Assembly (NCBI GenBank): GCA_038040195.1
Contig: JBBPIR010000001.1
Span: 417,341 to 481,340, forward strand
DNA: 64,000 nt
Direction: 5' to 3'
Source of the DNA: Chloroflexota bacterium
Lineage (GTDB): Bacteria; Chloroflexota; Limnocylindria; QHBO01
How positions within the stretch are numbered: position 1 is the stretch's first letter; every line of letters begins with the position of its first letter. This document shows, in pieces, positions 20,172-36,187 of this stretch. Under the pieces are notes generated by a model, which made no database searches, was not told where the DNA came from, and saw only the letters and a program-made list of their open reading frames with translations. The position numbers and the translations under genes were made by a program.

Positions 20172-20759
20172 TCAGCCGGCCGCGCGAACGGAAGCCTCGG
20201 CCGCGGCCTTCGCCTCGCGGCGGCTGATGCGCCGGAACTCGTAGTACAGGTAGGCGAGGCCGGTTGCGCCTCCGCCGGCGGTGATCGCGCCCAGGCCGAG
20301 CGCGATGAGGGGGAACTGAGGCCCGGTGGTGGTGATGAAGGCGCCGCCGGCGACGTTGAACACCAGGTACGGGATCAAGAGCAGTACCACCGCCACGTAG
20401 TTGGCGAGCACGAACAGTCGCACCAAGGTCCAGCCCGGGCCGTGCCGTCCGCGGGACGCCTGCGTCATGGCGGCCAGGATGACGACCAGCACGACGTTGG
20501 TCCAAGCCACACCGTTGGCGACGATGTAACCCACGTTCGCCGAGAACTGGAGGAATGGGATGAACTGGGTGACGGCGTAGAAGACCGAGTTCGGGACGTA
20601 GGTGAACAGCCAGTACACGAACAGGAACATCGGCACACCCTTCATGGTGGCGATGAGCCATGTCTCGGACCCGAACAGGAGCCAGTTCGTGAAGTCATCG
20701 GCCTCGCCCAGCAGGCGAGCAAACAGGCCGCGACGCCTGGGCAGCGCGTAAGTCGTCAT
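20172..20759 (-). CDS. Hypothetical polytopic membrane protein (195 aa) co-operonic with the cytochrome bc genes
   Basis: Five or six TM helices; ATGA-type 4-nt overlap with the upstream dihaem cytochrome c gene. Confidence 0.5.
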   Translation of the reverse strand: MTTYALPRRRGLFARLLGEADDFTNWLLFGSETWLIATMKGVPMFLFVYWLFTYVPNSVFYAVTQFIPFLQFSANVGYIVANGVAWTNVVLVVILAAMTQASRGRHGPGWTLVRLFVLANYVAVVLLLIPYLVFNVAGGAFITTTGPQFPLIALGLGAITAGGGATGLAYLYYEFRRISRREAKAAAEASVRAAG

Positions 20760-21820
20760 TGGGTCTGGTCCAGCAGGAACGTGATCAGGGCCTGCAGCTG
20801 GTCTGCAGTGAGGTCACTCTCCGGGAACGGCGGCATCCCGGTATCAGCGTCGTCGTTGTAATTGGCCGCCGAATCGCGGATCCATTTCTCCAGGAACGTC
20901 CGCATGTCGGCGTCGTAGTCGGCCTGCATCTGACCAAGGCCGGACACCGGGACTGGGAGGTCGGTCACCAGCTGGCTGCCGATGGTCTGGAGGTTTGGCC
21001 CGATTCCTCCCTCGAGATTGCGCCCGTGGCAGCCGAAGCACCCGGCATCCTCGAACACCTGCGCGCCGGCCTCGGCCGTATCCGGGACCTCCTCAGGCGG
21101 GTTGGCGAGCGTCTCCTCCGCCCATTCGCCGATCATCGCCGTCAGGGCTTCGATCTGCTGGCGAGTCAGCGACCCGCCGTACTCTTGGCCCCAGGCCGGC
21201 ATGAGGCTGTTGATGTCCCCCGATCGCACGATCCCGCCCAGGGTGATGACCCACTGCACATAGTTGTTCAGGCCCTGCCGGCCGCCGGTCTGAAGCCATT
21301 TGTTGGCCAGGCTCAGGGAGTGCAGGTTCGGCCCGATCCCACCCGTGCCGTCGACACCATGGCAGCGCGCGCAGTTGGCGCCATATGGCGTGAGATGCGG
21401 GGGGCCCGCGGTGACGAGCAGGGTGCTTTCCACGCCCTGGGCGGCGACGGTGGTCTCCCCATCCTCGTCGAACTTGACCGGCGATGTCCTGGTGTCCTCG
21501 ATGACAACCTCGAACGGCCGCGTCCCCGTCCCGCTCACGGTGAGCTCGGCGCCGGTCAGGTTCTTGAAGCTGATGGTTGTGTTCACGAATACCGAGATTT
21601 CCGTGAGGGCAACCTCAGCCTGGGAGAACCCGGCATCGATGACATCCACTTCGATGGTGTACGTGTCGTCGGGTAGGAAGACCAGCAGCCCGAAGTCCGG
21701 CAGCTCCTCGGTGTCGACGACCTCGAACTCCCCGCGCCGCGGGGCGTCGGTTATCCAGTAGAAGGTGGTGAATGCCGCGAAACCGACCATCAGCGCCACG
21801 CCGAGCGCCTTCATCCGCAT
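20756..21820 (-). CDS. Membrane-anchored dihaem c-type cytochrome (bc-complex cytochrome c subunit, QcrC-like)
   Basis: N-terminal TM; two CxxCH haem-binding motifs (CARCH, CFGCH), each followed by Met-containing loops. Confidence 0.8.
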   Translation of the reverse strand: MRMKALGVALMVGFAAFTTFYWITDAPRRGEFEVVDTEELPDFGLLVFLPDDTYTIEVDVIDAGFSQAEVALTEISVFVNTTISFKNLTGAELTVSGTGTRPFEVVIEDTRTSPVKFDEDGETTVAAQGVESTLLVTAGPPHLTPYGANCARCHGVDGTGGIGPNLHSLSLANKWLQTGGRQGLNNYVQWVITLGGIVRSGDINSLMPAWGQEYGGSLTRQQIEALTAMIGEWAEETLANPPEEVPDTAEAGAQVFEDAGCFGCHGRNLEGGIGPNLQTIGSQLVTDLPVPVSGLGQMQADYDADMRTFLEKWIRDSAANYNDDADTGMPPFPESDLTADQLQALITFLLDQTQ

Positions 21821-21830
21821 CGGCGCACAC

Positions 21831-22451
21831 CTACCCGGCGCAATGCGGGATGTCCTCGTTCCTGCGGTTGTCGAACGTCTCGGTGCCGATGGGCGGACCG
21901 TCGATCCTCACCGAGGTGTCCACGATGTACACGCCCTCCTCGATTCGGTGGGCGAACCGGTCCATGCCGCGGGGCGCGGGTCCCGCGCGCTTCTCGCCCA
22001 GGACCGTGTACTTCGATCCGTGGCACAGGCACTCGAACCACATGCTGCGGTCGCACAGCTGGGGGACGTTGCAGCCCAGGTGCGGGCACTTGCGGTACAG
22101 GGCCACGATCTCGTCTCCAGGGTCGTCGAACTCCTCCCCGGTGCCGTCGACGCGGGCCTTTGCAGCGGGGACGTTGACGACGAACAGCCGAGCCTTGTTG
22201 TAGATGAAAGGCAGGCCGCGCACCCACTCCGGCTGCTGCCCCGCGATGTCCGCCGCCGTTCCCAGGGCGAGGTTCGGGTCTCCGAGGCCACCCTTGATGT
22301 TGGGCCACAGGAACAGGATTGTGCCGCCCAGGAACTGGAGGGTAAGCAGGCCGACGCCGACCCCTACCGCCCGGCGCAAGAACCCTCGGCGGCTGATCTC
22401 GCGGACCGGCGGACCGGGCTGCTCCCCCCAGCCCGACGGTTGGGTGGTCAC
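21831..22451 (-). CDS. Rieske [2Fe-2S] iron-sulfur protein of the cytochrome bc/b6f complex
   Basis: Tat-like signal (RRGFLRRAVGVGVGL); Rieske boxes CPHLGC and CLCHGS. Confidence 0.85.
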   Translation of the reverse strand: MTTQPSGWGEQPGPPVREISRRGFLRRAVGVGVGLLTLQFLGGTILFLWPNIKGGLGDPNLALGTAADIAGQQPEWVRGLPFIYNKARLFVVNVPAAKARVDGTGEEFDDPGDEIVALYRKCPHLGCNVPQLCDRSMWFECLCHGSKYTVLGEKRAGPAPRGMDRFAHRIEEGVYIVDTSVRIDGPPIGTETFDNRRNEDIPHCAG

Positions 22452-22461
22452 GGCGCGGGCC

Positions 22462-23082
22462 TCATAGGGTGAAGAAGATCCCCTCCCACGGCCAGACCCA
22501 GTTCCAGCCCGGGCCGCGGAAGAACGAGCCGATGAGCGTGACCCCGATGCCGAAGAACATGATGCACAGGAAGAAGATCCAGGCCACCTTGCGATCCCGA
22601 GCCGCCCGATACGGCGAGCGGTCCACGTAGGCGATCAGAGCCAGACCGATGAAATAGACGGGCGGGATGAACAGCCCGGAAATCGTGACGTTGAAATAGG
22701 ACAGGAGCTCCTGGAGGCCGAGGAAGTACCACGGCGCCTTGGCCACGTGGGGCGTGACGTTCACGTTGGCCTGCTCTTCCAGCGGGGCCATGACAAAGAA
22801 CGACATGACCAGCAGCAGGGCGGTGATGAGGCACGCCATCAGGAACTCGGCCCGCAGCAGGTGGGGCCAGGTCAGAACCGTCTCGTCAGGGCGCTTGTCG
22901 ACCCGGACCATCGACTCCTGGCGGACGTAGGCCAGCAGCCGGAAACGCTCAGTGCCCGGGGCACCGGGCGGCCCCGGGAGTTTGGGACCGGTCCCCGGAA
23001 CCGCGGGCGGGGTCGTCGGCACCGGCGCCTGGGTGGGCGCGTTCTTATCGGCCGTCGCGTTGGGACGCTTCTCGATGGTCAT
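22462..23082 (-). CDS. Cytochrome b6f subunit IV-like (C-terminal half of a split cytochrome b)
   Basis: Three TM helices with a PEWY-like motif (APWYF); Pro/Ala-rich N-terminal extension; directly follows the b6-like gene. Confidence 0.8.
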   Translation of the reverse strand: MTIEKRPNATADKNAPTQAPVPTTPPAVPGTGPKLPGPPGAPGTERFRLLAYVRQESMVRVDKRPDETVLTWPHLLRAEFLMACLITALLLVMSFFVMAPLEEQANVNVTPHVAKAPWYFLGLQELLSYFNVTISGLFIPPVYFIGLALIAYVDRSPYRAARDRKVAWIFFLCIMFFGIGVTLIGSFFRGPGWNWVWPWEGIFFTL

Positions 23083-23096
23083 CGGTCAATCCAGCC

Positions 23097-23840
23097 TCAT
23101 ACCGGTCCGCTGATGCCGCCGTCTTTCCGAATCCGCCAGAAGTGGATCATCAGGAAGATGGCGGTGATGAGCGGGAACGCGATGACGTGATAGACGTAGA
23201 ACCGGATCAGGGTTTCCGAACCGATGTCGATCCCGGCGAAGATGATGAAGGCAGACTCGGTCGGGACCGCCGGAGCGTAGGCCGCCATCGAGCTGCCGAC
23301 ATTCACGGCCCAGAAGGCAATCTGGTCCCACGGCAGGAGGTACCCGGTGAAGCTGAGCCACAGCGTGCAGAACAGGAGGAACGTCCCGACCGCCCAGTTC
23401 CATTCGCGGGGCGGCTTGTAGGCCCCGTGGTAGAAGACCCGCATCATGTGCAGGAACACGGTGAGCACCATCAGGTGCGCACCCCAGCGGTGCATGTTCC
23501 GCACCAGGGAGCCGAAGGCCACGCTGTTCTCGATGGCGATGATGTCCTGGTAGGCGCGGTCGACGGAGGGTATGTAGAAGAACATCAGGTACAGACCGGT
23601 CACAGTCAGGACCAGGAACAGGAAGAAGCTGACCCCGCCGAGGCAGAACGTGTACGTGTAGCGCACGGCGTGGCGCTTGACCCGCACCGGGTGCAGGTGC
23701 AGGAACACGTTGTTCATGACCGCCAGGGCGCGCGTCCGGCTGGTGGTGGGGTACGGCTGACGGATCAGGGAGCGCCAGAAGTTGGACTCCTTGATCAGCC
23801 GGATGGGCAGCCAGTCCTGACCGGGCGGCTTGCGGGTCAC
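23097..23840 (-). CDS. Cytochrome b6-like (N-terminal half of a split cytochrome b; haem b ligands)
   Basis: Four TM helices with conserved His pairs (RxxH...H in helices B and D: MHRWGAHLMVLTVFLHMMRVFYHGAY ... YVYHVIAFP). Confidence 0.85.
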   Translation of the reverse strand: MTRKPPGQDWLPIRLIKESNFWRSLIRQPYPTTSRTRALAVMNNVFLHLHPVRVKRHAVRYTYTFCLGGVSFFLFLVLTVTGLYLMFFYIPSVDRAYQDIIAIENSVAFGSLVRNMHRWGAHLMVLTVFLHMMRVFYHGAYKPPREWNWAVGTFLLFCTLWLSFTGYLLPWDQIAFWAVNVGSSMAAYAPAVPTESAFIIFAGIDIGSETLIRFYVYHVIAFPLITAIFLMIHFWRIRKDGGISGPV

Positions 23841-25855
23841 CGTTCGACCACCATTCCCGCCTGCTGGCCAACCTGCCCCAGCACGTTGTCCTTGTAGCTC
23901 TCTAGCAACACTTTGCCATCAGGGGTGAACCGCTCGAGCTCGAGGCGGTCCATCGTGATGCAGTTGGTCGGGCACCGCTCCACACACAGGTTGCATCGGA
24001 TGCAGCGCTCCTCGTCGATGACCATTGCGATGCCCCGCGGCCACGACTGGAAGAGGTCGACCTCGGGGTCGTCACCGCCCACCGTCGCCTTGTCGACCAT
24101 GTAGATGACGCCTTCGGGACAGACGTCGGCGCAGAGCCCACACAGGATACAGCGGGGTCCATCGATGCTGATGTTGTGGTTGCACTGGAGGCAGCGGGCC
24201 CCTTCGGCGACCGCGCCCCGCGTGTCGTAGCCGATCTCGACCAGCCCGCTAAAGTCGCGGCGCATCTCGGGCGGGGCCATGGGGATGTGCTGGCGCGGGA
24301 TGGCCTCATAGAAGCGCGGCATGTCGTGGTCCAGGGCCTGGGTGATCGTGGCCCGGTTGATGATGGGCAGCTCGGCCAGCTCCGCGTCCCGGACGCCTGA
24401 CAGCCAGCGGTCGACGGCACGGGCGCAGGTGCGACCCAGGCCGGCGGCCTCGATGATGGTGGCTGGTCCGGTCACGTAGTCCCCCACCGCGAAGACCCCG
24501 TCCACGTTGGAGGCGAACGTGTTGCGGTCGGTCACGATCTTGCCGCGCATCAGCTCGAATGAGAGCGCGTTGAGCTTACGACCGTCGGGCCCGACCGGGG
24601 TGGTGCCGTTGAGCGGCTCGCGGCCCCACGACGAAATCGAGCCGCCTTTCACCACCTCGCGGGTATCGGTCACCCCGATGTGGCGGTTAAGGGGAGAGCC
24701 GTACTCGCCCAGGACGTTGTTGTCGGGTGACTGGCTCGTGCACGGGATGACCATGTCGCACGGGATCACGAACTCGCTGCCGGGGATCGGCTCCGCGGTG
24801 CGGCGGCCCGAGGCGTCCGGCTCGCCCAGGCGGGTGCGCTGGAAGACCGCGCCCTTCACCCGGCCCTGCTCATCGGCCAGGATCTCCACCGGGGCTCCGA
24901 AGTACTCGAAGCGGACCCCCTCGAAGCGCGTCTCGTGCTGCTCTTCCTCGTCGACGACCATCTCCTCGGGACCGCGGCGGTAGACCACCGTGCTGGTCTT
25001 GGCCCCGATCCGAAGGGCGGTCCGCGACGAGTCCATGGCCGTGTAGCCGCCACCGATGACCACGACGTGCTGGCCGACCCATTGCTCCTGGCCCAGGTTG
25101 GCGCGCTTCAGGAAGTCGACGCCGTAGATGACCCCGTCCAGCTCCTCGCCAGGGACGTTCATGGCGACCGGGTACATGCAGCCGGTGGCCACCACCACCG
25201 CGTCGTGCCGGGCGCGCAGCTCGTCCATGGTGACGTCCCGGCCGACCTCCACGTTGTAGTGGAACTCGGCGCCGTGCTTGGCCACCCAGTTGACGTCCAG
25301 CTCGATGACGTCGCGCGGCAGACGGAAGGCCGGCACGCCGATCAGGCAGGTGCCGCCGCCGGACGGCAACGCGTCGTAGATATCGACCTTGTGCCCCCAA
25401 CCGGCGAGCTCCTTGGCCGCGCTGAGCCCGGCCGGTCCGGCCCCGATGACCGCAACGCTCTTGCCGGTCGACGGCGCGACCTGGATGTCGTCGGGCATGT
25501 TGTTGGCGTAATGCCAGTCGACGAGGAACCGCTTCATCGCCCGGATGGCGAGTGGCTTGTCGATGTCGCCACGCCGGCAGGCCTTCTCGCATGGCGCCGA
25601 GCACACGTAGCCGCATATGGCGGCCACCGGGTTCGGGTCGCGGGCCAGGATGTAGCCCTCTTCGAACCGGCCCTCAGCGGCCAACATCAGGTAGCCGCGG
25701 CAGTTCGTGTTGACCGGGCAGCCTTCCTGGCACTCGATGTTGCACTGGAGCCAGTCGACGCCGACTTCGGCGGTCTGGAAGCGCAGGGGCACCGCGTCCT
25801 GAGAGGTCACGGGCGTTCGGAGCTCATCCAGCGTCCCCTTTGGCTCCCCCTGCAC
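23837..25855 (-). CDS. GltD-like NAD(P)H-dependent FAD flavoprotein with N-terminal [4Fe-4S] region and C-terminal 2x[4Fe-4S] ferredoxin domain
   Basis: Cys clusters (CNIECQEGCP...CGYVCSAPCEKAC); two Rossmann GxGxxG motifs (VIGAGPAGLSAA, VVVIGGGYTAMD); FAD motif VFAVGD; ferredoxin motifs (CLQCNHNISIDGPRCILCGLCADVCP and CIRCNLCVERCP); stop overlaps the b6 start. Confidence 0.8.
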   Translation of the reverse strand: MQGEPKGTLDELRTPVTSQDAVPLRFQTAEVGVDWLQCNIECQEGCPVNTNCRGYLMLAAEGRFEEGYILARDPNPVAAICGYVCSAPCEKACRRGDIDKPLAIRAMKRFLVDWHYANNMPDDIQVAPSTGKSVAVIGAGPAGLSAAKELAGWGHKVDIYDALPSGGGTCLIGVPAFRLPRDVIELDVNWVAKHGAEFHYNVEVGRDVTMDELRARHDAVVVATGCMYPVAMNVPGEELDGVIYGVDFLKRANLGQEQWVGQHVVVIGGGYTAMDSSRTALRIGAKTSTVVYRRGPEEMVVDEEEQHETRFEGVRFEYFGAPVEILADEQGRVKGAVFQRTRLGEPDASGRRTAEPIPGSEFVIPCDMVIPCTSQSPDNNVLGEYGSPLNRHIGVTDTREVVKGGSISSWGREPLNGTTPVGPDGRKLNALSFELMRGKIVTDRNTFASNVDGVFAVGDYVTGPATIIEAAGLGRTCARAVDRWLSGVRDAELAELPIINRATITQALDHDMPRFYEAIPRQHIPMAPPEMRRDFSGLVEIGYDTRGAVAEGARCLQCNHNISIDGPRCILCGLCADVCPEGVIYMVDKATVGGDDPEVDLFQSWPRGIAMVIDEERCIRCNLCVERCPTNCITMDRLELERFTPDGKVLLESYKDNVLGQVGQQAGMVVER

Positions 25856-25963: not shown

Positions 25964-28066
25964 CTAGGGGAAGAAATGGGCGGCCATGACGCGGCGGACG
26001 AGAGGGGCGGCGTCCGAGCCCCCGGTTCCCAGGTGCACGCGGGCCAGGAGCGTGGCCACCACGATCTCCGGGTCGTCGGACGGGGCGAAGGCCGGAAACA
26101 GGGCATGGGGATCGGGACCGCCGGTTTCCGCCGTCCCGCTCTTGCCGGCGACGGGGATGCCAAACCCGGCAAAGGCCGCCGTCCCGGTGCCGTAGGAGTA
26201 GGTCGTCACGGCCTCCAGCGCCGTTACCAGGTATTCCAACTGGTCGGGGGTCATGGCGATCCGGCGTCGAACCTCGGGCCGGGTCACGAGCAGCGACTCC
26301 CCGTTGGGACCGGTCGCGTGCGCCACGAGACGCGGCATCCACAACGTCCCCCGGTTCGCGAACGCGGCGTAGGCCAGCGCCATTTGAAGCTGCGTACCGA
26401 GGAAGGATCCCTGGCCGATAGCCATCTGGACCTGATCGAAGGGTCCGAACGGTATGTACCCCCCGGAGGAGCGTGGATGTTCCTCGAACCACAGGGCATC
26501 GGGCAGTACGCCGGCTGTTTCGGAGACCCAGCCGATGCCGGTGGGTTGCCCGAACCCGAAGTCGGCGATGAGATCGGTCAGGGCGTCGACGTCGCGCTCG
26601 TAGACCAGCATGGACAACGGCATGTAGGTCGTGTTGCAGCTGAAGGCCATGGCCTCCACCAGCGAGACCGTGCCGGGCAGCAGGTGATAGAGGTAGTTTT
26701 GGAAGGTGAAGCCCTGCAGGTCCCAGGTCGGCTGACACGGCATCCGGGTTGCCGGCGTGGCCACCCCGATCTGGAGCGCCGCCGCCAGGGTGAACGGCTT
26801 GAACGACGAGCCGGTGGGATATGCAGACTCGGTGGCGTGGTTGAGCAGCTGGCTGGCGCTGGGCGCGCCCAGCGGCACCCCGCCCAGGGTGGTGCCCAGG
26901 GTCATCGCGTTGGGGTTAAACGCGGGAGCCGAGACCAGGGCCCAGATGTCGCCGCTATGGGGATCGACCACCACGGTGGCAGCTTCGGGATAGGGGGCCA
27001 GTGCCGCCTCGGCGGTGCGTTGGAGTTCGGGTCGAAGAGTCAGGACCACGTCCGCGCCCGGGATTGCGGCCCGCTCCACGACCCGCTGGGCCGCTCCACC
27101 GTATGGCGCGGCCAGGACGCTGAATCCGGCACGCCCCCGCAGGATCGACTCCGCGCTGGCCTCCACCCCCAAACGGCCCGCCAACTGGCCGGCCGCGTAG
27201 CCGTCGGCTGGCGGCCATGCGGCCGCCTCGGCATCGGTGAGCGGGGTCACGTAGCCCACCGTCTGGCCGGCCAGCGTCTCCTGGGGGTACACGCGGATGC
27301 CATCCGCGCGGGTCTCGGCCAGGACCGTTCCGTCGGCGGCCAGGATCCGACCACGGGCGGGGAGGGGGCCGCGGTCCAAGCTGAACGTGCCGCCGGTCGC
27401 GCCCAGCTCGGGGAATAGGAATGCCGGCGTCCAGCGCACCTCCCAGCCACGAGCCCCCCGGGTGAGCTCGACCACCCGATCCAGGACGATGTCTCCGAAC
27501 ACGGTGGATTGGAAAGTGAGACGCACGGGAACCGCCTGGCCCGGAACGGGTCCGAGCACCACCGCCTGGGGATCGATGGCCGGAGCGGGCGAGCTGCCCG
27601 GAACGGGCGGCCGGGCGAACCGCGACCGCGCGACCGGCGGCGGAGGCACCGGCAGATCCGGTGGCCGAGCTTCAGGCGGTTGGGCCGCGGCGCGAGGTGA
27701 GCCAACAGCCAAGTGCATCTCGGTCAGGCCGATGACCTCCGCGAAGCGAGCATGGAGATCGGCGAACCCGACCCGCGTATAGCGTTCGCGATCGGCGGCC
27801 GCCATGACATCGTGCATGTGGTCGTAGTCCCGAATCCGCCACAGGGTGAGGAAAAGCTCCACTGCTGCGCGCGGCTGGACACCGGCGTCCAGTGCCATCC
27901 CGCCACCGGCGGTGGTGACGGGAGGCAGGGCGGCGCCCAGGAGAACCGCCAGCACCAGGCCGGCGGTCGCCGCGCGCGGAGGCGCCGACCTCAAGAAGCT
28001 GCGGCGGGACGGCCCGCGAGCGGGATCACGATGTCCCGGGCCGGGTCCAGGTGGCGGCTGCCCCAC
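25964..28066 (-). CDS. Penicillin-binding protein (class B transpeptidase, FtsI/PBP2-like) with NTF2-like N-terminal domain
   Basis: Transpeptidase motifs SxxK (GSSFKP), SxN (FSCNT), KTG-type (AGKSGTA); start uncertain because the ORF overlaps the upstream gene by 76 nt (possible internal start near 27898). Confidence 0.8.
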   Translation of the reverse strand: MGQPPPGPGPGHRDPARGPSRRSFLRSAPPRAATAGLVLAVLLGAALPPVTTAGGGMALDAGVQPRAAVELFLTLWRIRDYDHMHDVMAAADRERYTRVGFADLHARFAEVIGLTEMHLAVGSPRAAAQPPEARPPDLPVPPPPVARSRFARPPVPGSSPAPAIDPQAVVLGPVPGQAVPVRLTFQSTVFGDIVLDRVVELTRGARGWEVRWTPAFLFPELGATGGTFSLDRGPLPARGRILAADGTVLAETRADGIRVYPQETLAGQTVGYVTPLTDAEAAAWPPADGYAAGQLAGRLGVEASAESILRGRAGFSVLAAPYGGAAQRVVERAAIPGADVVLTLRPELQRTAEAALAPYPEAATVVVDPHSGDIWALVSAPAFNPNAMTLGTTLGGVPLGAPSASQLLNHATESAYPTGSSFKPFTLAAALQIGVATPATRMPCQPTWDLQGFTFQNYLYHLLPGTVSLVEAMAFSCNTTYMPLSMLVYERDVDALTDLIADFGFGQPTGIGWVSETAGVLPDALWFEEHPRSSGGYIPFGPFDQVQMAIGQGSFLGTQLQMALAYAAFANRGTLWMPRLVAHATGPNGESLLVTRPEVRRRIAMTPDQLEYLVTALEAVTTYSYGTGTAAFAGFGIPVAGKSGTAETGGPDPHALFPAFAPSDDPEIVVATLLARVHLGTGGSDAAPLVRRVMAAHFFP

Positions 28067-30468
28067 TCCCCGATCCGCGGATCGTGGGTGAACAGGATGA
28101 CCTGTCGCTCCCCGCTGAGCTCGTGGAGGACCCCGAGGAGCGCCTCACGTCGGGTGTCGTCTGCCTGGGCGGTCACCTCGTCCAGGATGAGGGGCGCCGT
28201 CTCGCCCGTCGTGACCAGGTGCTGGGCCATGGCCACCCGGAGCAGCAGGTAGATCTGCTCCCGGGTCCCCTCCGACAGGCGCCACGCATCGCGCCATTGG
28301 CGGGTCGCCGCTTCTCTGACCCGGACGCGCAGGTCGCGAGGATCGACGCTGACGTCGAGGTAGGCGCCGCCGGTGATGCGGGGCAGCCAGCGTCGAACCG
28401 TGTCGGCCAGCACCGGCGCGAGGTCGCGATGGACCTGTTCCTCGGCGTTGCGCAGCAGGGCCAGCGTTCGGTCCAGGACCTCCGCCATGGTCACGACTCG
28501 TTGGAGCTCGACGCCGGCGGCCTCGACCGCCTCCTCGGCCTCCGCCACGCTCGGCAGACTGGCGTCCAGCTGGCGCGCCTCGCCCTCGAGTGTCGCCGCC
28601 GCCCGTTCGGCGGTGAGCAGCTCGGCTTGGCCGGCGGCGAGCGCTTTCTCGGCCGCAGCCGTGGCGAGGCCGGCGTCGGCACCGACGGGCACCGCGACCG
28701 ATGTGGACAGACCGGCCGCCGCCATTCGTCGCGCGGCATCGGCGGCCTCCGACTCCAGCTGCCCGATGCTGCGGCCGTCAAGCAGGTCGCTGAGCTCCTG
28801 CCACTCCGCGATTGCCTGCTGGCCGGTCTGCAGATCGGCGAGGCGACGGCGCTGCCACGCCTCGAGGTCGCTCACGACGCGTTCGGGGTCATTCCCGTTG
28901 AGTGGTTGTCCAATGCGCTGGGCGGCCGCTCGGACCTCGGACTCGGCGCGGGCAATGGCGGCGGCCGCCTCAGCCGCCGTGCCCTCCAGCTGGCGACGGG
29001 ATTCGAGCTGCCGGCGCAGAGGCTCGGCCTGGGCGGCGGTGGCCGCCTCCTCCGCTCGCTGTGCGCAGGCGGCCAAGTAGGCGGCAACGGCCGCGCGCAG
29101 GTCGCCCTCACCGGGCGCGCCACGGGCAGTCAGCGCCTCGCGGACCGACCGCCCAGACCGCCCAACGCGGGCCGCGACGTCCTCCTGCCGACGCCCCCAA
29201 TCCGCAGCTGCGCCGGCCCCGCCCGTCCGCTGGCGGATCGTGATCCAGGCCGTGAATCCGAGCCCGAGGGCAATCAGGATGAGCCCAACCAGCGGTGCAC
29301 CCAGCAATACGGCGCTCAAACCGGCCGCCGCGGCCAGTAGGCCGCCGCCCACAAGCAGCCGCTCGCCCGAGGCGCCCGGCGCAGGGTGCCCACCGGGTTG
29401 CCGGAGCTCAGCAGCGGCGCCCTCGGCCTGGTCAAGCGCGCTCACCGCGTCCATGACCGACACATGGGGCGCTATGTCGCCCTGGGGCGCGGGCGGCAGC
29501 GCGGCCAGCCGCCGCGAGATGGCTTCGGCGTCCGGCCCGTCCAGGACGGCCGTCGCCGGTCGACCCCGCCACGCCTCCAGCGCGGTGGCCACACGGGCCG
29601 TTTCGTGTTCCACGGCGGCGAGTGTTGCCGGCGGACCGCTGTTGCGGGCGGCCAGCTCCGCGGCGCGGCGAGCGCGGGCCACGAGCGCAATGGCCCTGGA
29701 CTGCTCCACGGCGGCCTCGGCCTGGGCCAGCCGATCCCGAGCGGAAACGACCCGCCAGGCTGCGACCTGTGCATCGGCCGCCCGAGCCAGGTCACGCTGG
29801 TGTCGAGCCCGGGCATCGGCTACAACGCGCTCGGCATCCGCGGCTGCATGGCGCGCTTGGCGCAGGGGCCCGACCGCGACGCGGGTGTCGGCGCCTACGG
29901 CGGACTTCCGGAAATCGGTCAATCGGCCAATGGCTTCTGCCGCAGTGGAGTCCCGTCCGGCGGTGGCTGCGGCCCGCTGCATGTCGTCCTGGAGCCCATC
30001 GGCGGCATCCACGACGGCGAGGATGCGCGCCTGGTCGACCGATACGGTGGCGGCGAAGGCCTGCCGGTCAAGGCCCAGCCACCGCGATGCGTCCGGGCTG
30101 CCCTCGACGATGATCTCGGCCGACACGTCCCGCCCCAGACCGACATCCACCGCCCGGCAGTCAACCCGGCCAGCCAGGTCCTGGCTGATGTCGATCACGC
30201 GGCCGTCATCCAGATGCAGGCGGGCCTCGACCTCCCATGGGCCATCCGCCTCGTCCCACGGACGGTGCCGCTCCTCGAGCTCGAGGTCCTCCTTCGTCCG
30301 GCCCCCGCGCCCGCGCCGCCGACCGGTCAACGCCAGGCGCAGCGCGGCGTGCCAGGAGGACTTGCCCGCCTCGTTTGGGCCGACCACCACGGCCAGACCG
30401 GGGCGCAGTTCGAGGATGGCGTCGCGGAAGGGCCCGAATGCGCGCGCGGACACTCGCTCAACCCACAT
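27991..30468 (-). CDS. SbcC/Rad50-like SMC-family ATPase with central transmembrane hairpin (SbcE/YhaN-like)
   Basis: Walker A GPNEAGKSS; long Ala/Glu/Arg-rich coiled-coil; two adjacent hydrophobic helices mid-protein (LLVGGGLLAAAAGLSAVLLGAPLVGLILIALGLGFTAWITI); C-terminal signature-like LSEGTREQ, Walker B LILDEV and H-loop FTHD. Confidence 0.75.
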   Translation of the reverse strand: MWVERVSARAFGPFRDAILELRPGLAVVVGPNEAGKSSWHAALRLALTGRRRGRGGRTKEDLELEERHRPWDEADGPWEVEARLHLDDGRVIDISQDLAGRVDCRAVDVGLGRDVSAEIIVEGSPDASRWLGLDRQAFAATVSVDQARILAVVDAADGLQDDMQRAAATAGRDSTAAEAIGRLTDFRKSAVGADTRVAVGPLRQARHAAADAERVVADARARHQRDLARAADAQVAAWRVVSARDRLAQAEAAVEQSRAIALVARARRAAELAARNSGPPATLAAVEHETARVATALEAWRGRPATAVLDGPDAEAISRRLAALPPAPQGDIAPHVSVMDAVSALDQAEGAAAELRQPGGHPAPGASGERLLVGGGLLAAAAGLSAVLLGAPLVGLILIALGLGFTAWITIRQRTGGAGAAADWGRRQEDVAARVGRSGRSVREALTARGAPGEGDLRAAVAAYLAACAQRAEEAATAAQAEPLRRQLESRRQLEGTAAEAAAAIARAESEVRAAAQRIGQPLNGNDPERVVSDLEAWQRRRLADLQTGQQAIAEWQELSDLLDGRSIGQLESEAADAARRMAAAGLSTSVAVPVGADAGLATAAAEKALAAGQAELLTAERAAATLEGEARQLDASLPSVAEAEEAVEAAGVELQRVVTMAEVLDRTLALLRNAEEQVHRDLAPVLADTVRRWLPRITGGAYLDVSVDPRDLRVRVREAATRQWRDAWRLSEGTREQIYLLLRVAMAQHLVTTGETAPLILDEVTAQADDTRREALLGVLHELSGERQVILFTHDPRIGEWGSRHLDPARDIVIPLAGRPAAAS

Positions 30469-30471
30469 CGG

Positions 30472-31566
30472 TCACAGCACCTCGAGGTCGCGGCGCCCAT
30501 CGAGGGCGCGCAGTCCGGTGACGATCACGCGCCGCCGCTGGTCGAGATCTTTCACCTCTGCCGTTGCCAGCCGCACGAACTGGCCTCGGACGGTGGCCTC
30601 CCCGCCGATGGCGTCGAGGTCGTATCCCACGCGTGCCGACCCGGGGCGAATGACCAGCCCCTCGAGGTGGGCACCGAGCGTCGTCAGGCCGGCCAGGTCG
30701 ACCTCTACGCTGGGGGCCATCTCCCCGCTCAGCGTCACCCGCACGCAGCCGCCGAGGGGGGCAAGCGCCGCCTCGACCCGAGTCCGCACGTCGTCGCCGT
30801 GGGCCGCATCGTCGAGCGACACCTCGACGTCATGGACGACCGAGGTCGCCACCAATCGGCGTTCGCGCACCACCGAGCCGTCTGCGCCGACGGATGCCAG
30901 GACCGCACCCCGCTCCCCGGTCTCTCCGAAGTCGAGCGGATCGGGGTTGCCCGGGTACGTGTACCGATCCGCGTCGCGCGGGACATGGAAGTGGCCCAGG
31001 AATGCGTGGGCCAACCCGGACGCCTCCAGCTCACCCGCATCGAAGGGCGCGTGGGGCAGCTTGCCGCTCCCCTGCTGGGCCAGGAACCCGCGCTCGGATG
31101 CGTGCGCCAGGGCCAGGTGGATCCCACCCCGGTCGGGCCGGAAGGTCGCGAAGAACCCATCCGTGTTGGCCGGTGCCCGGTGCGCCGCACCCCACAAGGT
31201 GAGCCCATCGGCGAGGCCGGCCGGGGTCAATCGGTCCTCCGTGAACAGGTTGACGTTCGGCGACCAGTCCGTCACCGCGTACGGGCTGGCCTCGGACAGC
31301 CAGTCGTGGTTGCCGGGGGCGAGGTAGATGGGGATATTTGTCCCGCCGAAGCTGGCTCGCAGAAACTCGACCGTGTCAGGTGAGATCCGGTCGTGCTCGA
31401 ACAGGTCCCCTCCGCTGAGGATGGCGTCGACCCGCTCCGCCTCAGCCAGCTCCAGGATCCGGGTCAGGGTCGCGCGCCGGTTCTGGCGCCGCAGGGCGGC
31501 GGTGGCGGGACGAGCCCACGCGAACGGCGCGTCGAGATGGAGGTCCGCGAACAGGAGCAGCTTCAT
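30472..31566 (-). CDS. SbcD/Mre11-like calcineurin-type metallophosphoesterase (SbcF/YhaO-like nuclease)
   Basis: Phosphoesterase motifs (LFADLHLD, GGDLFEH, GNHD, GHFH); ATG at 31566; 4-nt spacing to the downstream ATPase gene. Confidence 0.8.
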   Translation of the reverse strand: MKLLLFADLHLDAPFAWARPATAALRRQNRRATLTRILELAEAERVDAILSGGDLFEHDRISPDTVEFLRASFGGTNIPIYLAPGNHDWLSEASPYAVTDWSPNVNLFTEDRLTPAGLADGLTLWGAAHRAPANTDGFFATFRPDRGGIHLALAHASERGFLAQQGSGKLPHAPFDAGELEASGLAHAFLGHFHVPRDADRYTYPGNPDPLDFGETGERGAVLASVGADGSVVRERRLVATSVVHDVEVSLDDAAHGDDVRTRVEAALAPLGGCVRVTLSGEMAPSVEVDLAGLTTLGAHLEGLVIRPGSARVGYDLDAIGGEATVRGQFVRLATAEVKDLDQRRRVIVTGLRALDGRRDLEVL

Positions 31567-31618: not shown

Positions 31619-31768
31619 TCACGACTCCGCGGCGCCGCGGTCGCGCCGCACCTGGACGACCAACAGGCCCGCCGCGGCCACAAGCAGCAAGTGGACGACG
31701 GGGCCGATCTGCAGCAGGAGCCCGATCAGCCAGACGGTGACGGCTACGCCGGTCCCCAGCCAGATCAC
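31619..31768 (-). CDS. Tiny hydrophobic ORF 2 (49 aa, predicted 2 TM), GTG start overlapping the preceding stop
   Basis: Read directly: MIWLGTGVAVTVWLIGLLLQIGPVVHLLLVAAAGLLVVQVRRDRGAAES; below the six-frame track size cut-off; GTGA junction with ORF 1. Confidence 0.25.
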   Translation of the reverse strand: MIWLGTGVAVTVWLIGLLLQIGPVVHLLLVAAAGLLVVQVRRDRGAAES

Positions 31769-31869
31769 GGCACGGGCGATGTGAGGGCGACCAGGCCCAG
31801 GACGGCACCGATGACGACCAGGCCGATGACGGCGACCGCCACGGTCGCCGCCACCTCGCGACTGCTCAC
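31765..31869 (-). CDS. Tiny hydrophobic ORF 1 (34 aa, predicted 1 TM), GTG start overlapping the bcp stop
   Basis: Read directly: MSSREVAATVAVAVIGLVVIGAVLGLVALTSPVP; GTGA junction with the bcp stop codon. Confidence 0.25.
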   Translation of the reverse strand: MSSREVAATVAVAVIGLVVIGAVLGLVALTSPVP

Positions 31870-32330
31870 GCGGCCAGGACCTCGACCAGCATGCTCACGT
31901 GCTCGCCGGGCTTGACCCGCGGGAAGACGTGCTCGACTCGCCCGTCGGGCCCGATGACGAAGGTCGTGCGCTCGGTCCCGAAGTACGTCCGGCCCAGGTA
32001 CGACTTCTCGACCCAGGTCCCGTAGGCCTCGGCCACGCGATGTCCTTCATCGGACAGGAGGCGATGGCGCAGGCCGTACTTGTCGCGGAACTTGACGTGG
32101 CTGGCCACGCTGTCCGGCGAGACGCCGAAGATCTCGGTGTCCAGGTCGGCCACGGCATCCCACGCGTCGCGCAGTCCGCAGGCCTGCGCCGTGCAGCCGG
32201 CCGTATCGTCCTTGGGATAGAAGAACAGGACGTAGCGCCGGCCGGCCAGGCCTTCGGAAGTAACCACGCTTCCGTCGTCGGCGCGCATCGAAAAGGCGGG
32301 GGCGGTCTCGCCCGGCTGGGGGTAGCTCAC
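31866..32330 (-). CDS. bcp: Thioredoxin-dependent thiol peroxidase Bcp (peroxiredoxin Q family)
   Basis: Peroxiredoxin motif FFYPKDDTAGCTAQACG with peroxidatic and resolving Cys. Confidence 0.85.
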   Translation of the reverse strand: MSYPQPGETAPAFSMRADDGSVVTSEGLAGRRYVLFFYPKDDTAGCTAQACGLRDAWDAVADLDTEIFGVSPDSVASHVKFRDKYGLRHRLLSDEGHRVAEAYGTWVEKSYLGRTYFGTERTTFVIGPDGRVEHVFPRVKPGEHVSMLVEVLAA

Positions 32331-33359: not shown

Positions 33360-34145
33360 TCAGCCGAAGATGAACCCCCACATCCCCAGCGCCATGCTGA
33401 TGGCCACCGCGGCCACGCCCAGGGCGCCGGACGCGGCCAGGAGCAGCCAGTCGGCGCGACGCATGCGCGGCGGTCGGGCCATTGTCCGAGCCGTCCGGCC
33501 GTCGAAACCGCGCGCATCCATGGCCAGCGCCAGCCGGGTCGCGCGTCGGATGGCCGATACCAGCAGCGTTACCAGCGCACTCAGAGCCAGGCGCAGGGCG
33601 GCCACCGGGTTGCGGCCCGCATCCACCCCTCTTGCGCGCCGGGCCAGCCCGATGGTCCGCCATTCGGCGCCCAGGATCGGGATCAGACGCAGCGACGCCA
33701 GGGCGCCGATGGCCAGCCGGTCCGGGACGTGGAGCTGACCGATGAGCCCGGCAGCCAGGTCCGCCGGATCGATGGTGGCCAGGGCCAGGCTGCCGGCCAG
33801 CGCAATTGCCGCAATCCGCAGGCCCAGCGCCAGCCCAATCGTCGCGCGGTCGACGACGGCCCCGGGTGACGAGCCGACCGGCGTTCCGGCCAGCAGCGCG
33901 TTCAGGACGCCCAGGATGGCAGCCGCGACCAGCAGGGGACCGACCAAGCGGGCGAGATCAGTTGGGCGGAGCCCGGTAAGGGTCATGGCCAGTCCCACCC
34001 CGCCCAACAGGATCGCGGGGGTGACCGGGTCGCGCGAGAGGAACGCAACCAGCATCACGATCAGCGCTGCGCCCAGCTTGGCAACCGAGTTCGCCGCCGG
34101 GAGGAACGCGGTCGGACTGGCGATGGCGGGCCGGCGCAGGTGCAT
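33360..34145 (-). CDS. ecfT: ECF transporter transmembrane (T) component EcfT (CbiQ family)
   Basis: Five or six TM helices with the conserved ARGxD/ARG-type motif region (RLALAMDARGF). Confidence 0.8.
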   Translation of the reverse strand: MHLRRPAIASPTAFLPAANSVAKLGAALIVMLVAFLSRDPVTPAILLGGVGLAMTLTGLRPTDLARLVGPLLVAAAILGVLNALLAGTPVGSSPGAVVDRATIGLALGLRIAAIALAGSLALATIDPADLAAGLIGQLHVPDRLAIGALASLRLIPILGAEWRTIGLARRARGVDAGRNPVAALRLALSALVTLLVSAIRRATRLALAMDARGFDGRTARTMARPPRMRRADWLLLAASGALGVAAVAISMALGMWGFIFG

Positions 34146-34148
34146 CGG

Positions 34149-35702
34149 TCAGGCGCCCGGCGGCAGGTGGAGGGTGCGATCGGCGAGCGCCTCGACGAGT
34201 GCCCGATCGTGCGTCGCGAGCACGACGCCCCGGCCGCTGTCGGCCAGGCCGGCGAGCAGCGAGAGCATCTCGTCCCAGGTCCGCCGGTCCTGGCCGTAGG
34301 TTGGCTCGTCGAGGATCAGGGCCAGCGGTGCCGTGGCCAATGCGGTGGCCACCGACAGGCGCCGCTGTTCGCCACCTGACAGCGTGAACGGGTTCGCCTC
34401 CCAGACCGCATCCAGGTGGAGACGTTCGGCGAGCTCCAACGCGCGCCGGCGGGCCTCCGCCTCCGCCAGCCCGGCCCGCAGCGGTCCGAGCGCCAGCTCA
34501 TCCGCCACGCGGCCGGTCAGGAATTGGTGCTCGGGGTCCTGGAATACCGATCCGATGCGAGTCACCAGCCGACGGGCGGGCCACTGCCAGACGGCGGAGC
34601 CGGCATGCCCGGGGGCCAGGGCCTCGCTGGCGCTGACCTGCCCGGCCTGCGGCCGGTGAAGGCCGCCCAGGAGGTGTGCCAGCGTGGATTTCCCCGAACC
34701 GTTGGGGCCCACGATGGCCAGCGTTTCGGCAGACCGCACGACCAGGTCGAGACGCGCGAACAGCGGTCGGTCCCCCAGCGGCGCCTGGGCGGACAACTGC
34801 TCGGTCACGATCAACGACTCGGGCTGCGGCGCCAACAACGGTCGCGCCGGGCGTTGCCCGCGGTGGTCGGGCGTCCAGATCCCGTGTCGGGCGAAGAGCT
34901 CGTCGTGCCCGACGAACACCTCGGAAGGTGGCCCGTCCAGCAGGATGCCTCCGCCCGCCGCCAGGACCACCACCCGGGTCACGAGGGGGAGCCACTCCGC
35001 CACGCGGTGCTCGACCAGGATGAGGGTGGTGGCGCGGTGTTCCAGCACTCGGGCCAGCGCCTCACGGACCAGGCCCGCTCCCTCGGGGTCGAGGTTGGCG
35101 GTCGGTTCGTCGAGGAGGAGCAGGTCGGGCTCGAGGGCCAACGCACCGGCCAGCGCCAGGCGCTGCTGCTCACCGCCGGACAGCTGCTCGGTGGGGCGGT
35201 TGGGCCCGTAGGCCCAGCCCACCGCATCCAGCGCGGCCCGAACCCGCGGCCAGATGTCGTTGGTCGGGACCCCCCGGTTCTCGAGCCCGAAGGCGACGTC
35301 ATCACCGGCTCGGCTCATGACCAGCTGGGCCTCGGGATCCTGGAGGACCAGGCCACAGCGCGGCCTGGAGGTGGCCGGAGTCTCCCCGAAGACGCGCAAC
35401 CGGCCCTCGGACTCGCCCCCTCCGCGCTCGTCGAACAGGCCGGCCAGACCCGCCAGGAGGGTGGACTTGCCCGATCCCGACGGACCGAGGAGCAGGACCC
35501 GCTCCCCGGGCTGGACAACCAGGTCGAGATGCCGGACCGCCCATGTGCTCCGGCTGCCGTGCCGCCAGCCCCATGTAACAGCCTCGATGGCCGGGGCCGG
35601 CGGGGCGTGGCTCGCGTTCAGCTGGCGGGCTCCGGACCGCTTCGCCCCGACGGGAAGGCGGCCAGCACGCCGGTCGGCCGCAGCAGACGGAGCAGATACC
35701 AC
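34149..35702 (-). CDS. ecfA: ECF transporter fused tandem ATPase EcfA-EcfA'
   Basis: Two complete ABC cassettes (GPSGSGKST / LSGGEQQRL / LLLLDEP and GPNGSGKST / LSGGEQRRL / LILDEP); start uncertain because the ORF overlaps the upstream S-component gene by about 85 nt. Confidence 0.85.
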   Translation of the reverse strand: MVSAPSAAADRRAGRLPVGAKRSGARQLNASHAPPAPAIEAVTWGWRHGSRSTWAVRHLDLVVQPGERVLLLGPSGSGKSTLLAGLAGLFDERGGGESEGRLRVFGETPATSRPRCGLVLQDPEAQLVMSRAGDDVAFGLENRGVPTNDIWPRVRAALDAVGWAYGPNRPTEQLSGGEQQRLALAGALALEPDLLLLDEPTANLDPEGAGLVREALARVLEHRATTLILVEHRVAEWLPLVTRVVVLAAGGGILLDGPPSEVFVGHDELFARHGIWTPDHRGQRPARPLLAPQPESLIVTEQLSAQAPLGDRPLFARLDLVVRSAETLAIVGPNGSGKSTLAHLLGGLHRPQAGQVSASEALAPGHAGSAVWQWPARRLVTRIGSVFQDPEHQFLTGRVADELALGPLRAGLAEAEARRRALELAERLHLDAVWEANPFTLSGGEQRRLSVATALATAPLALILDEPTYGQDRRTWDEMLSLLAGLADSGRGVVLATHDRALVEALADRTLHLPPGA

Positions 35703-36187
35703 GATCCCAGCCCGGCGATCATCACGCCGCTGACCAGCATCCAGGCCCCATACGTGAGCTGGATGGCGAAGTCGACCCCGACGAAATAGAACGTCATGTC
35801 ATGGATCCATTCACCGATGGCGGCGCCGGCGCCGGCAAGCAGCGCGACGGGCAGCGTCCAGCGCCGGTACAGCCCGAGGGCGAACACGAGCTCGGCGCCG
35901 ACGCCCTGCATCAGCCCCGAGGCCAGCGCGTCGAGCCCCCACACCGACCCGAGCAGGGCGGAGACCGCCGCGGCCATGAACTCGGCCAACAGGCCGGCGC
36001 CCGGCAGCCGCACGATGAGCGCAGCCAGGACAGCCGGGATCAGCCAAACCCCGGACAGGATGTACAACGGCGGGGCGAATGTGCCAGCTCCGATCGTGCT
36101 GAAGACCAGGCCCCAGGCCCAGAAGACGACGCCGAACGCGACGCCCAGCGACGCGGTGACCACGATGTCGACGGTTCGCCACCTCAT
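35618..36187 (-). CDS. ECF transporter substrate-specific (S) component, probably for thiamine or a thiamine precursor (ThiT/YkoE-like)
   Basis: Six-TM small integral membrane protein in an operon with the TPP riboswitch, tpk and ecfAT; 4-nt overlap with tpk. Confidence 0.65.
   Translation of the reverse strand: MRWRTVDIVVTASLGVAFGVVFWAWGLVFSTIGAGTFAPPLYILSGVWLIPAVLAALIVRLPGAGLLAEFMAAAVSALLGSVWGLDALASGLMQGVGAELVFALGLYRRWTLPVALLAGAGAAIGEWIHDMTFYFVGVDFAIQLTYGAWMLVSGVMIAGLGSWYLLRLLRPTGVLAAFPSGRSGPEPAS

Follow-up and report, generated by a model that had tools for sequence, protein, structure and literature searches.

How is the apex of a Rad50-like ATPase arranged when it carries a long hydrophobic segment at the position of the zinc hook, and where in the cell would such a machine work? 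The zinc hook counts as a hallmark of Mre11-Rad50 function, and the question is raised by two adjacent genes in a stretch of 64,000 nucleotides (nt) of contig JBBPIR010000001.1 from a Chloroflexota bacterium, here called the window. The window has a guanine plus cytosine (GC) content of ~70%, and the named genomes closest to it are metagenome-assembled genomes (MAGs) of Candidatus Limnocylindria (Chloroflexota); the protein identity to locus L007 is 96%. The two genes encode a Rad50-like ATPase and an SbcD-like nuclease. The reading favored here, with a probability of roughly 0.6, is that their products form a Mre11-Rad50-like complex of the SbcE/SbcF type, which would be tethered to the membrane through its coiled-coil apex and would trim DNA ends near the membrane under the control of ATP. 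The initial annotation of the window, made without database searches, had proposed a membrane-anchored pair of this kind, and both open reading frames (ORFs) lie where it had placed them, on the minus strand (Table 1).

In the ATPase, long helical arms interrupt a complete ABC head of the Rad50/SMC type. All the head motifs claimed in the initial annotation are in place, and the Q-loop residue Q146 is invariant in an alignment of 59 sequences. The protein is rich in alanine (21%), arginine (12%), leucine (10.5%) and glutamate (7.6%). At the N-terminus, the Pfam models AAA_23 (38.2 bits) and AAA_27 (36.7 bits, gathering score 22) score above their cut-offs. AAA_27 (PF13514), which from its InterPro naming we take to be the YhaN-type AAA domain, is precomputed for nearly every full-length homologue. 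Every curated cut-off for classical Rad50 or SbcC in Pfam and NCBIfam is missed: SbcC_Walker_B reaches 18.7 bits versus 27 and the NCBIfam Rad50 models at most 43 bits versus 700-1087, while Pfam SMC_N also stays below its threshold (36.9 versus 40). The best sequence matches in the PDB are Rad50 head domains (3e-9). In the AlphaFold2 (AF2) model, built on the 59-sequence alignment, a split α/β head encloses long helices between residues 201 and 698; the mean predicted local distance difference test score (pLDDT) is 76.5 and the predicted template modelling score (pTM) 0.45. The first Foldseek match in the PDB is the Rad50 of the C. thermophilum MRN complex (7zr1, E-value 1.8e-13), followed by MukB, Smc5/6, cohesin and JetC, with LmuB also among the fold matches. 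Sequence and fold searches therefore both have Rad50 as their best match, in line with the assignment first made.

The partner protein, described at first as an SbcD-like phosphoesterase, has the full Mre11/SbcD fold. The Pfam model Metallophos gives 53.2 bits (cut-off 21.5), and the metal-binding residues D8, H10, D54, N86, H87, H155, H192 and H194 are all invariant, as are many closely spaced residues within the last 40 positions. The family-specific models score lower: TIGR00619 (sbcd) gives 44 bits, below its cut-off of 77.65, and the Mre11 equivalog models at most 25 bits versus 434-600. Since it remains under the curated SbcD and Mre11 scores, the nuclease belongs to a divergent branch. 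Its sequence match in the PDB is the T. maritima Mre11 (1.5e-8). The AF2 model (pLDDT 84.7, pTM 0.79) contains a phosphoesterase core, a β-rich capping domain and two C-terminal helices, and the top 50 Foldseek matches in the PDB are, without exception, Mre11 or SbcD (50/50), with template modelling scores of ~0.6. These include the full-length T. maritima Mre11 from its complex with Rad50 (3qg5), whose alignment covers the entire nuclease chain. Because the C-terminal helices are conserved and the fold matches are to Mre11, they are likely the counterpart of the Rad50-binding domain, and residues 326-355 are probably the element that binds the ATPase coiled coil. Within the class, conservation is higher in the nuclease (~70%) than in the ATPase (~50%). 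The longest ORF of the nuclease begins with a TTG at 31683; this start was rejected in favor of the ATG at 31566, since all 120 retrieved homologues have a length of ~364 amino acids (aa).

The feature that sets the ATPase apart lies between its arms. Residues 371-411 (LLVGGGLLAAAAGLSAVLLGAPLVGLILIALGLGFTAWITI) form a run of 41 residues without D, E, K, R, H, N or Q, a set that accounts for 33% of the ATPase residues, and the second-longest run of this type has 16 residues. In 5000 shuffles of the ATPase the longest run had a mean length of 14.8 and a maximum of 33, and the chance expectation of a 41-residue run is ~5e-5. The peak 19-residue Kyte-Doolittle mean of the protein is 2.48. When the Hessa scale is simply summed, helix 1 comes to -0.1 kcal/mol and helix 2 to -2.0 kcal/mol, and the best window outside them in the ATPase has +8.6. 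The AF2 model places the two helices at residues 367-388 and 392-415, with a pLDDT of ~80 and a tight turn between them. Both flanks are charged, with GER on the N-terminal side (E369 and R370, a mixed charge) and RQR, which is basic, on the C-terminal side. Hydropathy, the AF2 model and the Hessa sums agree on the two hydrophobic helices that had been noticed at the zinc-hook position, and the hairpin that lies in place of the hook is long enough for two bilayer crossings. A central segment scored as soluble coiled coil and a CxxC zinc hook had been named as the signs that would speak against such a hairpin. Neither appeared: the segment is strongly hydrophobic on the scales applied, and CxxC was looked for in the whole 825-aa sequence, which has two cysteines in total, and is absent. 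A GC-bias artefact (Ala-rich, high-GC coding) was considered as the source of the hydrophobic run and ruled out, because a low-GC homologue is even more hydrophobic and no shuffle matches the observed length. This homologue (L044, Actinomycetota, 29% identity) has an Ile/Leu/Val-rich hairpin with a Kyte-Doolittle value of 2.98.

The same segment recurs throughout the relatives of the ATPase. In the 120 best homologues, except for three truncated fragments, the most hydrophobic window is found at a relative position of 0.43-0.48, and none of the 120 has a CxxC motif anywhere in its sequence. In an exhaustive HMMER search, 1.84 billion cluster representatives yielded 764 clusters with E<1e-30 and 3066 with E<1e-10. 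The newly retrieved ones among the best 150 of this search amount to 145 divergent representatives, with identities down to ~34%; 142 of them have the central hydrophobic segment at ~0.45, and two carry a CxxC that is incidental and away from the apex. The scan of genome collections used Limnocylindria-specific alignment patterns and consequently returned almost only that class. The wider taxonomy comes from a protein search seeded with an Acidimicrobiales relative, whose set includes Mycobacterium sp., Streptomyces sp., Micromonosporaceae, Nanopelagicales and a Gemmatimonadota MAG, and in which 93 of the 94 long relatives contain the central segment. Chloroflexota, Actinomycetota and Gemmatimonadota all have the hairpin, which is a trait of the family. 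The initial annotation had held a membrane tether to be notable for this lineage; the hairpin is not special to it, being common to a large family that extends over several phyla.

An alignment of 146 sequences indicates that the hairpin is conserved in character and less in sequence. The glycines of helix 1 (G376 in 82, G383 in 118 and G390 in 106 of the 146) and of helix 2 (G395 in 107, G402 in 98) are kept, as are prolines 358 and 364 ahead of the hairpin (P364 in 115) and tryptophans 408 and 424 past it (W424 in 124). The turn has 0-4 residues in most relatives and is shorter than in this ATPase. The glycines are seven residues apart and therefore lie on one face of each helix, a pattern that suggests tight helix packing and would allow the antiparallel coiled coil to continue into the membrane. 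The only two cysteines of the ATPase, C104 and C468, are also conserved within the class, the former in at least 90% of the sequences and the latter invariantly; C468 belongs to an invariant patch (Y464-C468-R471) located ~55 residues past the hairpin.

The nuclease and ATPase genes are obligately adjacent and tightly spaced. In the 83 fetched loci that contain the ATPase N-terminus, a nuclease homologue is always found directly upstream (83/83), with a spacing estimated by tblastn at -1 to 4 nt. The tight coupling claimed for the window is correct, with a spacer of 3 nt instead of the 4 nt reported at first, and a Shine-Dalgarno-like GAGGTG is placed within the end of the nuclease gene, just ahead of the ATPase start. 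In three loci outside Chloroflexota (L087-L089) the nuclease stop and ATPase start codons overlap.

The closest described system is the SbcE (YhaN)/SbcF (YhaO) pair of B. subtilis, to which the sole experimental study of proteins of this kind is devoted (Krishnamurthy et al. 2009, PMC2811018). According to these authors, SbcE has no CxxC motif and contains a unique, completely insoluble central domain with a hydrophobic first half; neither this domain alone nor full-length SbcE was soluble in E. coli. The yhaN gene is placed downstream of the sbcD-like yhaO, and the two products interact in the yeast two-hybrid assay. The mutants show sensitivity to double-strand breaks and a mild defect in transformation. 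SbcE is polar in competent cells and forms foci on nucleoids too, with no membrane rim described, and its central domain was never called transmembrane in that work (PMC2811018). The staphylococcal YhaN is listed as a predicted membrane protein and was detected in a surface-shaving proteome (PMC7137321), and a 2019 survey of the co-occurrence of CRISPR and repair genes describes SbcEF as poorly characterized (PMC6452273). No study on the membrane anchoring of SbcE/YhaN-type or Rad50-like proteins was found in the literature.

The pair in the window shares with SbcE/SbcF the absence of CxxC, a hydrophobic central domain between two heptad-repeat arms, the N-terminal AAA_27 head and an Mre11/SbcD-like nuclease gene immediately upstream of the ATPase gene; some close homologues of the ATPase carry the JGI label 'uncharacterized protein YhaN'. 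There are also differences. The ATPase, with 825 aa, is shorter than SbcE, for which ~106 kDa is reported; a penicillin-binding protein (PBP) gene lies downstream in the window, and no yhaM-type exoribonuclease as in the SbcE locus; and the host belongs to a lineage of Chloroflexota MAGs with no known competence, unlike B. subtilis. Classical SbcCD/Mre11-Rad50 systems (E. coli, T. maritima, P. furiosus and eukaryotic) have in common with the pair the split ABC head with all catalytic motifs, the helical arms, the Mre11-fold nuclease with capping domain and C-terminal helix-loop-helix, and the operon pairing. In contrast to them, the apex of the window ATPase is a hydrophobic hairpin without a CxxC zinc hook, and the arms are shorter and unequal. 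The likeness to SbcE/SbcF over classical SbcCD, suggested from the start, is borne out by the AAA_27 score, by the failure at the curated Rad50/SbcC cut-offs and by the same oddities reported for SbcE. The pair is a Chloroflexota addition to a known, neglected family and does not constitute a new kind of system.

The hairpin is not found in all proteins that carry the YhaN label. A proteobacterial 'YhaN family protein' encoded on a Sphingomonas paucimobilis plasmid (WP_197939295.1; L086, 1824-5288 of NZ_CP065714.1) has 1154 aa and an upstream 'DNA repair exonuclease' in the same gene order, and is 47% identical to the window ATPase over 75 residues of the C-terminal head. It has no hydrophobic central segment (maximum Kyte-Doolittle 1.27) and no CxxC, and represents a soluble branch, so that the hairpin characterizes only a subfamily.

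The complex may work as follows. The hairpin would insert in the cytoplasmic membrane, with the heads and the two arms on the cytoplasmic side, and would take the structural place of the zinc hook. The heptad-spaced glycines would let the antiparallel coiled coil run on as a tight pair within the membrane, and possibly also pair two hairpins. The nuclease would use its C-terminal helices to dock where the coiled coil has its base. Head engagement, driven by ATP, would then control how DNA ends are trimmed by exo- and endonuclease action, as it does in SbcCD, but only on DNA that is adjacent to the membrane. In Limnocylindria, such a complex would be a vertically inherited housekeeping repair function. 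We infer the membrane insertion, the topology, the pairing of hairpins, the docking of the nuclease and the DNA substrate from sequence and models.

Several observations weigh against this interpretation. The AAA_27 alignment is limited to ~44-47 residues at the N-terminus of the ATPase, and the likeness to the B. subtilis SbcE is by published description, not by direct alignment. The arms are unequal, with ~155 residues ahead of the hairpin and ~280 behind it, and their geometry in the full-length AF2 model is unreliable because of the pTM of 0.45. Helix 1, rich in Ala and Gly, has a marginal value on the Hessa scale, and the call of membrane insertion rests on hydropathy scales and AF2, which makes it a prediction throughout the family. 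Finally, the pair is found among transposases and Mrr restriction fragments in a Mycobacterium sp. MAG (L087), next to HipA_2/DUF3037 in a Streptomyces sp. (L088) and, in a Gemmatimonadota MAG (L089), beside a patatin gene in a locus that has an integrase at its edge. Given these variable neighborhoods, part of the family may be mobile or defence-associated.

The gene context in the window itself is of another type. In Limnocylindria, the pair is embedded in a block that comprises, in this order, an energy-coupling factor (ECF) transporter, an α/β-hydrolase, bcp, two tiny membrane ORFs, the nuclease, the ATPase, a PBP2-type transpeptidase, a GltD-like Fe-S flavoprotein, a split cytochrome b, a Rieske protein and a cytochrome c. 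The co-directional string with bcp and the two tiny membrane ORFs, which had been pointed out at the beginning, is confirmed; bcp is near the pair in 63 of the 83 loci. The synteny of the block holds down to ~50% ATPase identity. This conservation indicates vertical inheritance in housekeeping surroundings and not in a defence island, and it shows that the pair belongs stably to the core genome of Limnocylindria. Beyond the class, the two genes stay together without the rest of the block, and their neighbors differ: besides the three loci mentioned above, recC adjoins the pair in one Actinomycetota MAG, and central metabolism genes do so in another genome. The neighborhood check proposed in the initial annotation thus separates a housekeeping block in Limnocylindria from variable surroundings elsewhere.

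Table 1. Positions of the nuclease-ATPase pair, its motifs and the neighboring genes in the window, with the basis of each entry
Feature	Position	Strand	Basis or remark
ATPase, Rad50/SMC-like ABC, YhaN/SbcE type, 825 aa	27991-30468	-	ORF, Pfam, PDB matches, AF2, Foldseek
Walker A/P-loop GPNEAGKS, residues 30-37	30358-30381	-	G30, N32, E33, G35, K36 invariant in 59 sequences
Central hydrophobic hairpin, residues 371-411, two predicted transmembrane helices and G-A-P turn, zinc-hook position	29236-29358	-	hydropathy, shuffles, Hessa sums, AF2, conservation
ABC signature LSEGTREQ, residues 731-738	28255-28278	-	S732, G734, R736, E737, Q738 invariant
Walker B and D-loop PLILDEVTAQAD, residues 759-770	28159-28194	-	D763, E764, D770 invariant
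H-loop LFTHDP (His795)	28078-28095	-	H795, D796 invariant
Cysteine C104 of the ATPase	about 30155-30157
Cysteine C468 of the ATPase	about 29065-29067
Intergenic spacer, 3 nt, TGA CCG ATG	30469-30471	-	sequence
Nuclease, Mre11/SbcD-fold phosphoesterase (YhaO/SbcF-like), 364 aa, six phosphoesterase motifs, capping domain, C-terminal helix-loop-helix	30472-31566	-	Metallophos, invariant residues, AF2, Foldseek
Nuclease C-terminal helix-loop-helix, residues 326-355	30502-30591	-	AF2 helices 326-337 and 341-355; invariant residues dense at 327-361
Tiny membrane protein, 49 aa, weak lmo0937/DUF5670 match	31619-31768	-	upstream in the same string; system membership unproven
Tiny membrane ORF, 34 aa	31765-31869	-	4-nt overlap with bcp and with the 49-aa ORF; system membership unproven
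bcp	31866-32330	-	same co-directional string
PBP2-type transpeptidase, longest ORF	25964-28066	-	GTG start at 28066
Flavoprotein and respiratory operon	20756-25855	-
Split cytochrome b, first part	23097-23840
Split cytochrome b, second part	22462-23082
Rieske protein	21831-22451
Di-haem cytochrome c	20756-21820
ECF-type transporter module, complete	33360-36187	-	heads the same co-directional gene string
ECF S component	35618-36187
ECF fused double ATPase	34149-35702
ECF T component	33360-34145

The alternative that survives best is a defence role, which the initial annotation had mentioned together with DNA uptake: a nuclease stationed at the membrane would degrade linear foreign DNA (phage, conjugative or transforming) on entry and would take no part in chromosome repair. 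A tether would indeed put the nuclease at the site where foreign DNA enters the cell, the polar localization of SbcE in competent B. subtilis points in the same direction, and so do the mobile and defence-like genes next to the pair in L087-L089. The C-terminal head of the ATPase also matches the PADLOC model mad3 at 1.7e-18. On the other hand, the PADLOC matches correspond to generic ABC head segments; the likeness to the defence SMC-like ATPases (Lamassu LmuB, Gabija GajA, MADS mad3 and PbeC) is that of a generic ABC/SMC head and concerns head fragments only. The nuclease is matched by no PADLOC model, and no cognate defence partner genes are found near the pair. In the plasmid and phage collections searched by tblastn, only short and partial matches to the head were found and no fuller copy; a mobile-element origin of this locus was rejected on these grounds. 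Together with the recC neighbor in another Actinomycetota locus and the fixed position of the Limnocylindria pair in its housekeeping block, this leaves a defence role unlikely, and neither defence nor DNA uptake has local support.

A second alternative accepts the complex and questions its membrane. The hydrophobic center could be the buried dimerization core of a soluble complex, in which a four-helix bundle of two protomers replaces the zinc hook. The composition and marginal insertion energy of helix 1 would suit such a core, glycines seven residues apart fit tight packing in a soluble bundle equally well, and SbcE was seen as foci on nucleoids besides the poles and not as a membrane rim. 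However, a segment of 41-50 residues, none of them charged or strongly polar, that keeps its composition but not its sequence over hundreds of clusters is what lipid-exposed helices, and not soluble cores, typically look like, and helix 2 has a favorable Hessa sum. Arginine and tryptophan flank the segment, and the insolubility of both SbcE constructs in E. coli and the classification and surface-shaving detection of YhaN as a membrane protein argue in the same sense. A soluble core is therefore considered quite improbable. An envelope-related role outside DNA metabolism, with the ATPase as a membrane-tethered scaffold and the phosphoesterase acting on a substrate other than nucleic acid, is suggested by the cell-wall neighbors, the Limnocylindria pair being always just upstream of the PBP2-type transpeptidase and often separated from it by a PIG-L deacetylase, but it is very hard to reconcile with the specific Mre11 architecture (capping domain, Rad50-binding-type helices and structural matches exclusively to Mre11/SbcD) and with a PBP link that is lost outside the class while the two-gene pair persists.

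A membrane-tethered complex for the trimming of DNA ends remains the preferred reading, and its consequences extend beyond this locus. A large bacterial branch has an apparent membrane anchor in the place of the zinc hook, which was not recognized in the 2009 study of SbcE. We put forward tentatively, with less than even confidence, that the hairpin proteins are a distinct and unrecognized class of membrane-anchored Mre11-Rad50 machines, with at least several hundred clusters at 50% identity, present in Chloroflexota, Actinomycetota (including Mycobacterium and Streptomyces), Gemmatimonadota and probably, as SbcE, in Firmicutes. Their coiled coil would continue as a transmembrane segment with heptad glycines, which would replace the zinc hook as the apex and dimerization element, and DNA ends would be processed only at the membrane surface. 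Substrates there could be incoming DNA and chromosomal regions attached to the membrane. If the anchoring is genuine, it raises the question of why a DNA-end nuclease must be held at the membrane. The heptad glycines, the flanking tryptophans and prolines and the relatives in cultivable Mycobacterium and Streptomyces offer handles to approach it.

Some further observations concern the genes around the pair. Tiny genes equivalent to the two membrane ORFs upstream of the nuclease are found at the same place in related Limnocylindria loci. On the other side, a PIG-L deacetylase gene lies between the ATPase and the PBP in many relatives (L003-L006, e.g. 10609-11328 in L005) and is absent from the window and from its closest relatives L001 and L002. 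The longest ORF of the PBP2-type transpeptidase overlaps the 3' end of the ATPase gene by 76 nt. Its true start is probably downstream of 27991, since the proteins of 650-708 aa in the relatives begin past the ATPase stop.

Beyond the PBP, the operon begins with a GltD-like FAD/NAD(P)H oxidoreductase of 672 aa with several 4Fe-4S domains, the stop of which overlaps the start of the split cytochrome b. The combination of the flavoprotein with a b6c-type respiratory operon is conserved in L001 and L003-L006. At the opposite end, the ECF-type transporter module is preceded in the relatives by a thiamine pyrophosphokinase gene.

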